Virus record (IMG/VR): IMGVR_UViG_3300033489_000009
Span: 769 to 64,768 of that record
Origin: a virus
Strand: one strand, 5' to 3'
Length of the DNA: 64,000 nucleotides
Position numbers and translations under genes: made by a program. The notes below the pieces were generated by a model, which searched no databases, had not been told where the DNA came from, and worked only from the letters and a program-made list of their open reading frames with translations. Positions within the stretch are counted from its first letter, which is position 1; the number at the start of each line of letters is the position of its first letter. Shown here piece by piece: positions 1,046 through 4,597 of the stretch.

Positions 1046-1344
1046 CGGGATGCCGCCTCGGTGTCCGTGATCCAGGCCGAGTAGCTCAGCCGCACCTCGA
1101 ACATCTCCCCGGCCTGCCGGACCCAGTCACCCTCCGGCGGGGTCGGCGGCACGCCCAGCGTCGGGCGCCCCGCAGGGCCACCGCCGAGACGGACACCCCG
1201 CTCCTTGGCCAACGCGACCGCCTGGGCGTGCAACAGGTCCCTGATGGCCGACCGGCCGCGCTGCTCGGCCGGGACCTCCGCGTAGAAGGTCCACGTACCC
1301 CATCGCCCGCCCACCACAGCCCGCCCCTGCTCCTGCTCGCTCAA
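1042..1344 (-). CDS. Hypothetical protein
   Basis: 100 aa ORF overlapping the TerL stop by 4 nt. Confidence 0.6.
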   Translation of the reverse strand: MSEQEQGRAVVGGRWGTWTFYAEVPAEQRGRSAIRDLLHAQAVALAKERGVRLGGGPAGRPTLGVPPTPPEGDWVRQAGEMFEVRLSYSAWITDTEAASR

Positions 1345-3917
1345 ATGAACCTCACCCGAGGCCTGGCACCGAGATCCCGCTCAGCGCACATGTACCTAGC
1401 GCAGTCACAGTTATGCACGAGGACGCCGGCCGCGAAGTACTCCGGCTGGTCAGCCACCGTCAGGTTGAACACCGGCACAAGCCCGGGCTGAACGCAGACG
1501 CTGAGCACATGTACGTCCGCAGCATTCCTTGCGGCTGTAGCGGTTGGTAGTGAACTCGGTACCGCACTGGGGGCAGGTCCTCTGCTCGTCGTCCACGCCG
1601 CTCGCGTAACGCCATGCCGTCTTGCACCTATTCGAGCAGAACCGCTCACGACCGTGCTGGTTGGTGGTCTCGAAGTCGGCCCCGCACTGCTCGCAGGTGC
1701 TGGTTCGCACGGGTCCATGCCCGAAGCGTTCCACCTCAGCGTGCCAGCGGTGCCAGTCCAGACCCTCAGGCGAGCTGTGCCATGCCGCAGCGAGCGGACG
1801 AATCCGCTCGAGATGCGCGCGAGCCTCGGGACTTTGCGATCGGACCCGCGCCTGTTCCCGGTGAACTTCCTTGTGCTCGGCGATCGTGACGCAGGCCAGG
1901 TTCCCCGGGTCATTGTTGAGGGGGTCGAAGTCGAGGTGATGGACCTCGCAACCCTCGGGTATCGGTCCATGCTTGGCCTTCCATATCTCCTGGTGAAGGT
2001 GCCCGACTCCCCGCTTCCTGTCGGCGATTCCAGGAGTGAAGTAGTTGCGGTTGGCCTGATATGGAGAGTCTGGGTAGCGGCGGAATGTGATTCCGGCGAA
2101 CTTAACTCGCTCGACGTTGGACACCCCATAAGTCTATCCCCATATCCCAATGAATCGAGCCGCGACCAGCCTCTTTCGTTCACCCAGACAGGATGATCCC
2201 CTGTACCGACAAGCACTTCCCCGGTCGACAGCAGGACCTGCACCACTTCCGCAGCGGGCATGGTCATGCCACTCGCAACTACAGGTCGTGGTCCGGCCCT
2301 GGTAAGCACCAGGTGCCATGGCCGGATCTGCTCGATCGGGACGTCTCCGGCAGTGGTGGCGACCAGCGTCCCGGCAATGAGGCACCCATGGTCGTCCACC
2401 TTCAACGGTGTCTCCTTCGTCTCCCTCGGCACCGCCGCCGTCGCCCCGGCCGGATCCCACACGTAGCCGGGCAGCTCCTCCGCGAAGCATGTCGGCTTCT
2501 TCGCCTCCTCCAGCTCCGGGTCCAGTTCCACCAGTGAGTCCCGGAGGATGTACAGGCGGGGCTTCCCGTCACCCGCTGGCCGGAGGCGGGCCTGCATGGC
2601 CTGGATGCCGTCCTTGACCGTCTTGTGCGCCGCGGAGGTGGACATGCCCAGGTGCCGTTCCAGGGTCGCCCTGTCTTCCGCGTCATGGTCGCAGATCACC
2701 GCGGTGGGGCGGGGCTCCAACCAGACGCCGTCGCCGTCGCGCATCTGGGCGAGCATGGTCCGGGCGTGGTCCTCGACGAGCCGTCTCGTGTGGTAGATCT
2801 CCCGGTACATCCATAGCCGGCCGTCGCCGTCCTCGGCGTACCACTGTGCGGTGAAGGGGTTCGTGAAGCCGAAGTCCACCACGATCCACCTGGTCCAGTC
2901 GGCTGGGATTTCGAACCGGTCGACGAGGTGGATCGCAGGGTCGTACCCGTCGTAGATGATCCCCTCGGCGGCGACCCACTTCCCTCCCTCCAGGCGGGCC
3001 TTCCGGACGCCGGTGAGCTTCGCCAACTTCGCCAGGTACGCCGCCCCAGCGAGGGTGGGTTTGCCGGTGGCGGGCGCGATGAGGGTCGGGTTGTCCGAGT
3101 GCCGGCAGTGGAGCATCCGGGTGTCGCCCCGCTGGCAGCGGACGTTCAGCCAGTGGGTGGGCTTGTCCGGGTTGGTGTCGGCGAGGAGCTGCTGGACCGG
3201 GGTACGGGCGTTCCGGAGCCGGGTGGTGAGCGCCTCCCAGTTGTCGGTGGTCAGCTCGATCGCTTCTTGGACGTACACCACGTCGTAATCGGAGGACATC
3301 ACCCTGGTCGATTTGTCCATTCCGCCGAGGTTGATGGCGGACCCGTTGGCGTACCGGTAGGCGGCGGCCTCCTGCTGGGATCCGCCGTAGAAGTGGACCA
3401 GTCCCGCTTCGAGGGCTTCGGGGATGACCTTCTCCCGCCAGGTGACCAGGGCCGTGGAGCCGAGGGAGGTGAGTGTCTTGCGGATGACCAGGCCGCGCAT
3501 CCCGGGCCAGGCGAGGGCGAGGAGGTTCAGCAGCTCGAGGGCCGCCCGGGACTTGCCGGTGCCCGCGGGACCGGACAGGAGGACCTCGTCCTGGGCGGTG
3601 GTGAACACGTCGCGGGCCGCGCCGTGCGGGGCGTACAGGTGGACGCCGGGCACGGTCGGATGCTCGTCGGTGCTGGCCTGGTCGGGGTGGACGGGCAGGT
3701 GCAGGGCGGTCGGCAGGTGCACGCCGGGGATCAGGTAGGTGACGGTGCTCGCGTCGGGCCCGGTCAGGACGAGCCGGTCGCCGGCCGGGACGGTCGCGGT
3801 CCAGCCGGCCTTGCGCCACAGCCGGTGCCCGGAGTGGTCGAGGTCGTCCGCGGCGTTCCTGGCAGCTTGGGCGACCAGCCTGGCCACCCACCCGCCCGGG
3901 GCCGCGGTCGTTGTCAC
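1341..3917 (-). CDS. terL: Terminase large subunit, intein-containing
   Basis: Walker A GPAGTGKS, Walker B YVQEA, coupling motif DTNP, nuclease motifs VDFGFTNP and DDHG/CD..RY; interrupted by an intein. Confidence 0.95.
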   Translation of the reverse strand: MTTTAAPGGWVARLVAQAARNAADDLDHSGHRLWRKAGWTATVPAGDRLVLTGPDASTVTYLIPGVHLPTALHLPVHPDQASTDEHPTVPGVHLYAPHGAARDVFTTAQDEVLLSGPAGTGKSRAALELLNLLALAWPGMRGLVIRKTLTSLGSTALVTWREKVIPEALEAGLVHFYGGSQQEAAAYRYANGSAINLGGMDKSTRVMSSDYDVVYVQEAIELTTDNWEALTTRLRNARTPVQQLLADTNPDKPTHWLNVRCQRGDTRMLHCRHSDNPTLIAPATGKPTLAGAAYLAKLAKLTGVRKARLEGGKWVAAEGIIYDGYDPAIHLVDRFEIPADWTRWIVVDFGFTNPFTAQWYAEDGDGRLWMYREIYHTRRLVEDHARTMLAQMRDGDGVWLEPRPTAVICDHDAEDRATLERHLGMSTSAAHKTVKDGIQAMQARLRPAGDGKPRLYILRDSLVELDPELEEAKKPTCFAEELPGYVWDPAGATAAVPRETKETPLKVDDHGCLIAGTLVATTAGDVPIEQIRPWHLVLTRAGPRPVVASGMTMPAAEVVQVLLSTGEVLVGTGDHPVWVNERGWSRLDSLGYGDRLMGCPTSSELSSPESHSAATQTLHIRPTATTSLLESPTGSGESGTFTRRYGRPSMDRYPRVARSITSTSTPSTMTRGTWPASRSPSTRKFTGNRRGSDRKVPRLARISSGFVRSLRHGTARLRVWTGTAGTLRWNASGMDPCEPAPASSAGPTSRPPTSTVVSGSARIGARRHGVTRAAWTTSRGPAPSAVPSSLPTATAARNAADVHVLSVCVQPGLVPVFNLTVADQPEYFAAGVLVHNCDCARYMCAERDLGARPRVRFI
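1410..2384 (-). mobile_element. Intein (325 aa) in the TerL nuclease domain
   Basis: Begins CLIAGTLVAT (Cys1 codon 2382-2384), has a block B-like TGDHPVW, and ends FNLTVADQPEYFAAGVLVHN followed by Cys+1. The exteins rejoin as KVDDHG-CDCARY. Confidence 0.93.
1450..2124 (-). CDS. HNH endonuclease with C-terminal zinc fingers, nested in an alternative frame inside the intein
   Basis: HLHQEIWKAKHGPIPEGCEVHHLDFDPLNNDPGNLACVTIAEHKEVH (HNH) plus CEQC, FCSNRC, CPQC and CCGRTC motifs; same strand as the intein, different frame. Confidence 0.88.
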   Translation of the reverse strand: MSNVERVKFAGITFRRYPDSPYQANRNYFTPGIADRKRGVGHLHQEIWKAKHGPIPEGCEVHHLDFDPLNNDPGNLACVTIAEHKEVHREQARVRSQSPEARAHLERIRPLAAAWHSSPEGLDWHRWHAEVERFGHGPVRTSTCEQCGADFETTNQHGRERFCSNRCKTAWRYASGVDDEQRTCPQCGTEFTTNRYSRKECCGRTCAQRLRSARACAGVQPDGG

Positions 3918-4597
3918 AGTCGTGCTGCCGGGTCGATCTGCTCGGCGAGAGCGCGCAACTGGACGGGGATCAGGGCCTGTGCCCGTTCCGCCTGTTCGGG
4001 GGTGAGGTCAAGGTCGGCCAGGACGGCGCGGAGGGTTTCCCCGACCATCGCCCCGACCTGCTCGGCGAGGGTGACACGGCGTTCCTCGATGCCCATCCGG
4101 TGGGCGATCTCGCAGGCTTTCAGGAGCCGGTCCTGCGCCTTGCCGAGGAGTTCGACCCACAGGTTCGGGTGGGCTTCCTCGGTGATGTCGGTGCCCGGGT
4201 TCTCGGTGGCCTGCTTGCTGACCTGCTTCGTGGTGCCCCAGATCACGTCGTCCGCAGCGAGCTGGCGGACCTGGATCCGATACCAGGCGACCTCCCCCGC
4301 CAGGTGCGCGATCTCGCCAAGGACGACCTCAGCCGGGTCGAGGCCGTCGATGGGCAGGCCGAGGGTGGTGGCGGCGGCGCGCGCGGCGAGCTCGGCCCTC
4401 GCTCGCTCGGCCGCGTTCTTGGACCGGCGGGTCGCGCCGCCGTGGACCCGGCACGCCTTCCCGCCCGCCTCCGGGTAGGCCAGGCACGGGGCGGGCGGGC
4501 TGGTGCCTTTCCGGTGGCCGCTGCAGGTCGGCACACCAGGGGCGGTCTCCCGCTCGTGACGGTGCCCGCAGCGGCGGCACTTCCGGACGGGACTCAT
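3914..4597 (-). CDS. terS: Terminase small subunit (putative)
   Basis: Directly upstream of TerL with a 4-nt overlap; N-terminal Cys cluster and CRVHGGAT (HGG-type) motif; helical C-terminus. Confidence 0.75.
   Translation of the reverse strand: MSPVRKCRRCGHRHERETAPGVPTCSGHRKGTSPPAPCLAYPEAGGKACRVHGGATRRSKNAAERARAELAARAAATTLGLPIDGLDPAEVVLGEIAHLAGEVAWYRIQVRQLAADDVIWGTTKQVSKQATENPGTDITEEAHPNLWVELLGKAQDRLLKACEIAHRMGIEERRVTLAEQVGAMVGETLRAVLADLDLTPEQAERAQALIPVQLRALAEQIDPAARL

Follow-up and report, generated by a model that had tools for sequence, protein, structure and literature searches.

Inteins are commonly taught as single polypeptides that carry their homing endonuclease, usually of the LAGLIDADG type, in frame with the splicing domain. 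Here we describe an intein whose nuclease gene lies in another frame of the same DNA strand. It interrupts terL, the gene for the large subunit of the terminase (TerL), in IMG/VR virus record IMGVR_UViG_3300033489_000009. The window analyzed, a stretch of 64,000 nucleotides (nt) corresponding to positions 769 to 64,768 of this record, comprises almost the entire length of a viral genome of 64,944 bp that is complete and has direct terminal repeats. Soil metagenomes are the source of this genome, and the phage is known from its metagenome-derived sequence. The explanation that we consider likely is that terL harbors a composite selfish element, made of an intein and of a separately produced, out-of-frame HNH nuclease, which would spread by homing.

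The first same-strand, out-of-frame intein endonuclease was reported by Gosselin, Arsenault, and Gogarten (bioRxiv 10.1101/2025.01.02.630785, v2 October 2025). It occurs in the TerL intein of Gordonia cluster DE1 phages, 795 nt long, and is endonuclease VII-like (IPR004211), with its catalytic domain at residues 1-67 (bioRxiv 10.1101/2025.01.02.630785). The same authors report HNH endonucleases only in frame and read the DE1 arrangement as the invasion of an intein by a free-standing endonuclease gene (bioRxiv 10.1101/2025.01.02.630785). The intein of the window shares with the DE1 intein its class (class 1), its host protein, the location of the endonuclease in another frame of the same strand ("frame 3" in that study), and an in-frame reading without recognizable fold. 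Nevertheless, the nuclease is different, being an HNH_3 protein with an I-HmuI-like N-terminus and two zinc ribbons instead of an Endonuclease VII-like protein; no match to Endonuclease_7 was found in the nested open reading frame (ORF) at E≤0.1, and a tblastn search with the HNH protein against phage records matched no DE1 Gordonia phage. The insertion sites also differ, ...TRWHEDD in the ATPase domain for DE1 versus the nuclease motif DDH↓DALRY (arrow, insertion point) for the present family, as do the lengths (795 versus 975 nt) and the breadth, a handful of Gordonia phages versus at least 13 phyla.

The ShiLan domain, an out-of-frame HNH insertion in the DNA methylases of actinophages (Arsenault et al. 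2025, PMC11855218), is similar in its hidden, GTG-initiated HNH in an alternative frame, its stop-free reading in the frame of the host gene, and its sporadic, homing-like distribution. It is not an intein, since it lacks detectable splicing domains, and presumably it remains part of the methylase, as a loop, whereas the TerL insertion has to be removed, because it lies in an active-site motif and is flanked by a complete HINT splicing domain. In "fractured genes", a free-standing endonuclease gene lies between the halves of a split intein (Dassa et al. 2009, PMC2677866), a layout that is matched by 16 of the 35 non-nested homologs described below. In the window, in contrast, the intein is contiguous and the nuclease gene overlaps it in another frame; moreover, the endonucleases of Dassa et al. 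are VSR-like rather than HNH. I-HmuI, the intron-encoded HNH nicking homing endonuclease of phage SPO1, belongs to Pfam HNH_3 like the nested nuclease, but is encoded by a group I intron, shares only 17% sequence identity with it, and has a helical (helix-turn-helix) C-terminal DNA-binding part in place of zinc ribbons. Finally, inteins that carry their HNH in frame have been described (Dalgaard et al. 1997, as cited in bioRxiv 10.1101/2025.01.02.630785), and the dCTP deaminase intein of cyanophage CL131 combines HintN with a nuclease of the same HNH_3 family (PMC6293099). In these inteins the HNH is a domain of the intein polypeptide, whereas it was never found in frame in the 156 loci of the present family.

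A sequence-only reading of this locus had mentioned recent reports of similar inteins. Such reports do exist (bioRxiv 10.1101/2025.01.02.630785; PMC11855218), but they deal with another nuclease, with another insertion site, or with an insert that has no intein. The papers on a zinc-ribbon HNH nickase, on Pseudomonas compost phages, on TaPaz, and on CL131 were also checked and none describes the present arrangement; neither did the searchable literature yield a description of an HNH_3/zinc-ribbon nuclease in the -1 frame of an intein at the TerL nuclease site. A preprint of September 2026, known to us by its title, reportedly describes an out-of-frame endonuclease in a cyanobacterial dnaX intein. 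The design principle is thus known and recent; what seems new is the HNH_3 TerL family, with its breadth and its fixed geometry.

The TerL precursor of the window is an ORF of 858 residues, intein included (1341-3917; this and all features below are on the minus strand), which matches Terminase_3 and phrog_2, terminase large subunit. Its closest cultured relative, the TerL of Thermobifida phage P1312, shows 60% identity across residues 92-520 and has neither the intein nor an adjacent HNH gene. The N-extein (2385-3917) contains the ATPase domain and most of the RNaseH-like nuclease domain, ends in ...KVDDHG, and is colinear with the P1312 TerL once the intein is removed. The C-extein (1341-1409, stop codon included) reads CDCARYMCAERDLGARPRVRFI and aligns with MDAMRYMVAHRDL of P1312. 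When the intein is excised in silico, ...KVDDHG joins CDCARYM..., which aligns without gap to KADDHG-MDAMRYM of P1312.

Between the exteins lies a class-1 intein of 325 residues (975 nt, 1410-2384; residues 512-836 of the precursor), inserted at the motif DDHG↓CDxxRY of the nuclease domain. It starts with CLIAGT and ends with VLVHN, giving the Cys1...His-Asn termini followed by Cys+1 that the sequence-only reading had described as intact at these positions. We aligned 43 inteins of the nested type (alignment A2), and this alignment was used for conservation, profile search, and AlphaFold2 modeling. Cys1, the Thr and His of block B (T61 and H64, GTGDHPV), and the terminal His-Asn are kept in all 43 sequences. 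The profile matched the solved inteins gp41-1, NrdJ-1, DnaB, and RecA at E values of 2e-15 to 1e-10. In the AlphaFold2 model, residues 1-90 and 291-325 fold together as a HINT domain at a predicted local distance difference test (pLDDT) score of 93-98. The N-terminal lobe (2115-2384, residues 1-90), with beta strands, holds blocks A and B, with T61 and H64 invariant, and the C-terminal lobe (1410-1514, residues 291-325, pLDDT 96-98) holds blocks F and G (...VFNLTV...GVLVHN), conserved in the 43 inteins.

The region between the lobes (1515-2114, residues 91-290) is the stop-free, intein-frame reading of the HNH gene. As the sequence-only reading had noticed, it is of low information content and rich in Ser, Thr, and Arg. 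It is also rich in Pro, has no family match, and shows no conserved columns in the alignment. The model gives it no secondary structure and a pLDDT of 41-54, which predicts a disordered linker of about 200 residues. The termini, the block B residues, the profile matches, and the modeled lobes support the insertion being a class-1 intein with a HINT splicing domain. We infer that it is spliced at the protein level, because it interrupts an essential nuclease motif of TerL and because the spliced product would be colinear with the intein-less TerL.

The nested ORF (1450-2124) encodes 224 residues from a GTG start, over 675 nt including the stop codon. It lies entirely inside the intein, on the same strand as terL, with a frame offset of +2 (i.e., -1) relative to TerL. 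It matches Pfam HNH_3 (PF13392) at E 1.1e-15, with 57.4 bits against a curated cut-off of 24.8, and phrog_15471, "HNH endonuclease", over nearly its full length at E 3.3e-37, in agreement with the nuclease that had been read from this frame. We found 253 homologs, of which 34 were aligned (alignment A1) for conservation, locus search, and AlphaFold2. The catalytic core (1861-2001, residues 42-88), in which the HNH_3 match spans residues 42-84, contains H62, H63, N71, N75, H84, and H88, all invariant across the 34 homologs. The "several zinc fingers" of the sequence-only reading correspond more exactly to two Cys4 zinc ribbons, whose eight Cys are invariant or nearly so in the alignment. Ribbon 1 (C144, C147, C163, C167; 1624-1695), with invariant Cys columns, has zinc-ribbon and YacG-like Pfam matches below threshold, and ribbon 2 (C184, C187, C202, C206; 1507-1575), with invariant or nearly invariant ones, has a YacG-like fold match (Z 4.4).

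The nested protein is confidently folded by AlphaFold2, with a mean pLDDT of 93.6 and uncertainty confined to the last ~10 residues, and it is predicted to be an I-HmuI-like HNH_3 nuclease with a beta-beta-alpha-metal fold. The best solved fold is indeed that of I-HmuI (PDB 1u3e; Z 7.1, root-mean-square deviation 3.0 Å over 76 residues), well above the next matches, and the overlap covers the N-terminal sheet and the HNH core. The model also aligns to the I-PpoI, GVE2, and Gme HNH structures at Z 3.3-4.4, and its C-terminal ribbons resemble YacG. A Foldseek search of the whole model against the PDB gave no match at E≤0.001, because the protein is extended and multi-domain; it was the exhaustive structural search that recovered I-HmuI. 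Nor did the HNH alignment, used as a profile against PDB sequences, match any entry. The C-terminal tail (1450-1473), GVQPDGG followed by the stop codon and with a pLDDT of 53 at its last residues, corresponds to intein block F (VFNLTVAD) read in the shifted frame, and its recurrence in the nested homologs is thereby explained.

The arrangement is not particular to the window, but is shared by more than 100 phages and prophages. With the A1 profile, 145 loci were obtained from viral contigs and from genomes, the latter limited to one per species, and these were combined with phage records, assembly contigs, and the window locus into a census of 156 loci with a match; a scan of the viral contigs with the single HNH sequence had found nothing, matches being obtained only with the alignment. 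In 121 of the 156 loci, the intein-side frame (+1 from the HNH frame) is open across the whole HNH, whereas the other alternative frame is open in a single locus; 35 loci are not nested. An intein terminus of the [HS]N↓[CST] type is present in 107 of the 121 nested loci, and both termini could be mapped in 106. The mapped inteins all start with Cys1, are followed by Cys, Ser, or Thr at position +1, and measure 270-362 residues (median 323), and the aligned HNH region starts a median of ~90 codons into the intein. All 106 sit at one TerL motif, ...DH(x)↓(C/S)DALRY, with the same frame offset. Their host TerLs are not of one Pfam family (Terminase_3/3C, Terminase_6N/6C, and T7-type RNaseH are represented), and the junction is always near positions 143-148 of the 155-column RNaseH-like nuclease profile.

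The guanine-plus-cytosine (GC) content of the loci ranges from 0.31 to 0.68. The nested loci derived from genomes are labeled with at least 13 phyla, including Actinomycetota, Bacillota, Bacteroidota, Pseudomonadota, Chloroflexota, Acidobacteriota, and Patescibacteria, with many labels coming from metagenome bins, so that single labels are only as good as the binning. One locus of nested type, with the intein frame open across the HNH, occurs on a 3154-nt contig of a metagenome-assembled genome of a Methanomethylophilaceae archaeon (L111), which could be an archaeal virus or a binning error.

A metagenome-derived sequence might owe such an overlap to two compensating frameshift errors that put an in-frame HNH intein out of frame, as the sequence-only reading had considered, and in-frame HNH_3 inteins do exist elsewhere, for instance in the cyanophage CL131 dCTP deaminase (PMC6293099). 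Nevertheless, Logan contigs from a second, independent soil study (run X2) are identical to the window letter for letter, without indels, over 1200-1977 and 2000-2267, and in the probable source sample one 18-kb contig spans the whole locus. A tblastn search with the HNH protein against 50,697 phage records located homologs inside the annotated terL of four cultured or complete phages, namely Tetrasphaera phage TJE1, Acinetobacter phage Highwayman, Clostridium phage phiCDHM19, and Rhodobacteraceae phage LS06-2018-MD07. In all four, the match start minus the terL start is 2 modulo 3, as in the window, and each terL product likewise has a Cys...[HS]N↓[CS] intein with a middle of low information content. 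In the five loci examined in detail, the HNH open frame starts 239-263 nt past the intein start and stops 40-55 nt before the intein end. Not one of the 156 loci has a HINT lobe in its HNH-frame ORF, and in the window a stop codon of the HNH frame lies 3 codons before the GTG at 2124. With the same offset in the 106 divergent loci, an assembly or sequencing artefact is hardly conceivable and was rejected.

A group I intron with an HNH ORF, removed at the RNA level as that of I-HmuI, is another possible origin of such an insert. Phage HNH homing endonucleases are typically intron-encoded, and so is the best structural match to the nested protein. However, an Rfam search of 1200-2600 gave no RNA family match at E≤1, and thus no group I intron, the flanks of the HNH encode a HINT fold in frame with TerL, and in 106 loci, even those with a GC content as low as 31%, the insert is free of stops in the TerL frame, a constraint that does not apply to an intron. 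The probability of an intron is practically nil, and this candidate was rejected as well.

The 675 nt that had been proposed to be dual-coding contain no stop codon in the intein frame across the HNH ORF, versus 7 in the third frame. All nested loci are likewise free of stops in the intein frame, whereas the 35 non-nested homologs have a mean of 5.3 stops in the intein-side frame, never 0; the third frame has a mean of 12. By these counts, dual coding exceeds chance. When the HNH protein was resampled with synonymous codons, an intein frame without stops had a probability of 0.08 in the window, of 3e-4 in the Acinetobacter phage, and of <3e-4 (0/3,000) in the 31%-GC Clostridium phage, the last two phages being AT-rich. 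Over 5,565 pairs of nested loci, divergence at the three HNH codon positions was 0.47, 0.43, and 0.65, i.e., the freest is the wobble position, which serves as second codon position in the intein frame. Translated in the HNH frame, these nucleotides show an amino-acid identity of 41%, versus 24% in the intein frame. These wobble, identity, and stop-count data indicate that the HNH frame is selected for its protein, and the intein frame only for staying open.

They also bear on the view that the HNH ORF is a silent relic, untranslated and unused, within a fixed mini-intein that has a junk linker. Inteins commonly lose their endonucleases, and the ribosome-binding site of the window is weak. However, an untranslated frame would decay, yet over 100 loci, at 31-65% identity, have kept this one intact, with invariant catalytic His and Asn residues and eight conserved Cys, a variation that follows the HNH-frame wobble pattern, conserved start codons, and a confident fold. 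A relic is thus very unlikely, and was rejected on these grounds.

Concerning expression, a start codon is present at the aligned first HNH residue in all 106 mapped loci (80 ATG, 21 GTG, 5 TTG). The HNH frame contains a stop codon a median of 7 codons before this start, in the window a TAG 3 codons upstream, which leaves little room for frameshifting and indicates separate initiation. Low-GC members possess textbook ribosome-binding sites, such as AAGGAG-8 nt-GTG in phiCDHM19 and GGAGGG-5 nt-ATG in LS06, and the predicted anti-Shine-Dalgarno pairing is stronger before HNH starts than at control positions (mean -4.8 versus -3.2 kcal/mol). We infer, with this indirect support, that the HNH is translated separately from an internal start, GTG 2124 in the window. 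The alternative that programmed ribosomal frameshifting produces a fusion of N-extein, N-terminal intein lobe, and HNH, with no initiation of its own, would agree with the location of the HNH on the same strand in the -1 frame, the commonest programmed direction, and with the weak Shine-Dalgarno of the window. It is at odds with the nearby upstream stop, which allows almost no room for a shift site, with the ATG, GTG, or TTG conserved in every mapped locus, and with the strong AAGGAG- or GGAGG-type sites of low-GC members; in the window, to which this inspection was confined, no canonical slippery heptamer is seen by eye in the 9 nt available. We find this alternative even less credible than a relic, and it was rejected in view of the upstream stop and the conserved start codons.

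In many high-GC members, including the window, the Shine-Dalgarno is weak, and a TANNNT hexamer is found instead exactly 6 nt before the start. In the window, this is TAGACT (2131-2136), a -10-like sequence and candidate internal promoter whose TAG is the last HNH-frame stop. TANNNT-N6-start occurs in 50 of the 106 loci, and in 35 of the 52 high-GC loci, with a spacing that is always 6 nt, versus 1.9% of the other [AG]TG triplets in the same genes. The hexamer overlaps the intein codons for Asp-x-Leu. In high-GC loci, the Asp codon is GAT in 32 cases and GAC in one, against a background of 22% GAT, and the codon that follows always begins with A (AGA 12 times, never CGN), a bias that argues for nucleotide-level selection.

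In actinobacteria, the -10 boxes that drive leaderless mRNAs have this geometry, a TANNNT with 6 nt after it. This likeness led us to propose an internal promoter at TAGACT and a leaderless HNH message starting at GTG 2124, a proposal that we hold tentatively and with less than even confidence. A broader form, at least as speculative, is that the element is triple-coded, the LxYGD-x-L codons at the end of the N-terminal lobe doubling as a promoter, at times together with a TTGACA-like -35 box, with leaderless expression in actinobacterial hosts and Shine-Dalgarno initiation in low-GC hosts. If true, the HNH would be made independently of the late transcription of terL in actinobacterial hosts. 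Near-consensus sigma-70 promoters were also observed in the 45 nt upstream of the HNH start in four viral contigs (L071, L066, L035, L084), for instance TTGACA-16 nt-TATAAT-6 nt-ATG in L071; they lie wholly within the intein codons for ...LDxLRYGDII....

An intein-less allele was found on a 10.3-kb sediment-metagenome contig from another study (run X4), which has ~90% identical flanks and skips exactly 975 nt (1406 to 2382); this contig comes from a related phage. Together with P1312 and the different TerL families, it shows both precise insertion and sporadic presence among close relatives. The HNH probably drives the homing of the element, a reading that is backed by the exact 975-nt intein-less allele and by the spread across different TerL families. 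The terL of the X4 contig has 915 extra nt (305 codons) of its own at window position ~3278-3282, in the Walker B region ...DVVYVQEA...; their size and location in an ATPase motif suggest a different intein at another TerL site.

An HNH that is translated but serves DNA packaging, as a terminase cofactor of the HK97 gp74 type, must be weighed against homing. HNH nucleases encoded beside terminase genes are known to act in packaging, as a component or as a nickase (PMC3592412), and the non-nested members of the family always lie beside terS or terL: the HNH precedes terS in Acinetobacter phage BP10 and, in a metagenomic phage, is flanked by an intact terL and by the portal gene. Nevertheless, the distribution is sporadic, P1312 and the ~90%-identical contig having no nested copy, and the HNH is embedded in a mobile intein at one site of unrelated TerL families. 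The nested protein is also an I-HmuI-like HNH_3 of 224 residues with long DNA-binding ribbons, while packaging HNHs have ~100-130 residues. Packaging-associated HNHs are small and conserved in all relatives with the same terminase, and the nested HNH is neither, sharing with them only its proximity to terminase genes. A role in packaging is therefore improbable, although less so than the other alternatives considered above, and homing remains our preferred reading.

The non-nested loci show other states of the same nuclease family. In 16 of the 35, the HNH ORF is immediately preceded by an N-terminal HINT lobe, whose frame is 0, 1, or 2, with a split or "fractured" terL layout as in Lactobacillus phage CL2 and in Peptococcus prophages. 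In CL2 (L008:506-2734), the annotated "large subunit terminase" ends just past the N-terminal intein lobe (...ATGDHLILTENGW...), and the HNH is the next, separate ORF; the same layout is seen in L113, L118, L120-L122, L127, L130, L135, L138, L147, and L156. These loci look like split (trans-splicing) or broken terL genes with a nuclease gene between the intein halves, the C-terminal half being found by pattern in only 3 of the 16. Since nested, split, and free-standing loci were all found, a single nuclease family exhibits free-standing, split-intein, and overlapping-contiguous states. In the HNH tree, nested and free forms are interleaved, with 13 changes, the branch support being too weak for counting origins or for giving a direction. 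Another, unrelated nuclease family occurs at the 3' end of terL in an archaeal virus, Halovirus HVTV-1: gene 111 (L005:3925-4551) encodes a zinc-ribbon HNH with several CxxC pairs and a C-terminal HNH, and its start lies 7 nt ahead of the end of terL; this terL is intact and intein-less, with EADHGMDALRY at the C-terminus.

We propose the following explanation. A class-1 intein occupies the last catalytic motif of the TerL nuclease domain (DDHG↓CDxxRY) and would have to splice out of the precursor to restore a working packaging enzyme. In the usual endonuclease slot between the HINT lobes, the DNA encodes a complete I-HmuI-like HNH_3 nuclease with two zinc ribbons in the -1 frame, while the TerL frame would be read straight through as a disordered linker of ~200 residues, unconstrained in sequence except for the absence of stops. 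The HNH would be produced as a separate protein from GTG 2124, either on the terL mRNA or, in high-GC hosts, on a leaderless transcript from TAGACT. It would most likely nick or cut the intein-less terL of co-infecting or resident relatives near the insertion site, and repair would then copy the whole element in. The data show the anatomy, the dual coding, selection in both frames, conservation throughout the family, and an intein-less allele, while splicing, separate translation, the target of the nuclease, and homing are predicted.

Several points weigh against this explanation. The Pfam intein and HINT matches of the single window sequence are below the gathering thresholds, and the assignment to the inteins is based on the profile search and on the model. 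The 106 mapped loci are not phylogenetically independent. The Shine-Dalgarno before GTG 2124 is weak, a GGGGA about 12 nt upstream, and a scan of 1300-4000 for consensus sigma-70 promoters and terminators found nothing, for which reason the -10-only leaderless proposal rests on the family statistics. Moreover, the conservation of TANNNT is partly protein-driven, because the motif overlaps the conserved intein peptide LRYGDxL, and the codon bias would equally be explained by a patch that is AT-rich and unstructured and so helps internal initiation. None of the RNA runs searched for the window sequence contains it. Finally, homing by a nicking HNH with its target at the insertion site is an assumption made by analogy.

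Out-of-frame intein nucleases were reported only in 2025-2026, in few cases, and were presented as rare actinophage curiosities. In the present family, overlapping frames are the usual state, found in about three quarters of the 156 loci, and the geometry is fixed over 31% to 68% GC and at least 13 phyla. Long dual coding can thus be maintained when selection acts on the protein of one frame and, in the other, only against stops, which makes this family a clean natural system for studying the evolution of overlapping genes. The occurrence of contiguous, split, and free-standing states within one nuclease family supports the model of intein origin in which the splicing domain comes first and the nuclease invades later.

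The family also reveals a systematic blind spot of annotation, in which one or the other of the overlapping genes goes missing. In the phage records this is the nested HNH, only terL being annotated, and the reverse is seen in a Streptomyces sp. assembly (GCA_042728575.1, L010:2023-4287), in which the nested HNH is called (3501-4175) and the 755-residue frame of TerL and intein has no gene call. The cultured members, TJE1, Highwayman, BP10, phiCDHM19, and CL2, offer experimental handles on the family. If the triple-coded reading is true, these loci would represent an undescribed mobile element spread across many phyla, in which every stage of the merging of a nuclease with an intein has been captured.

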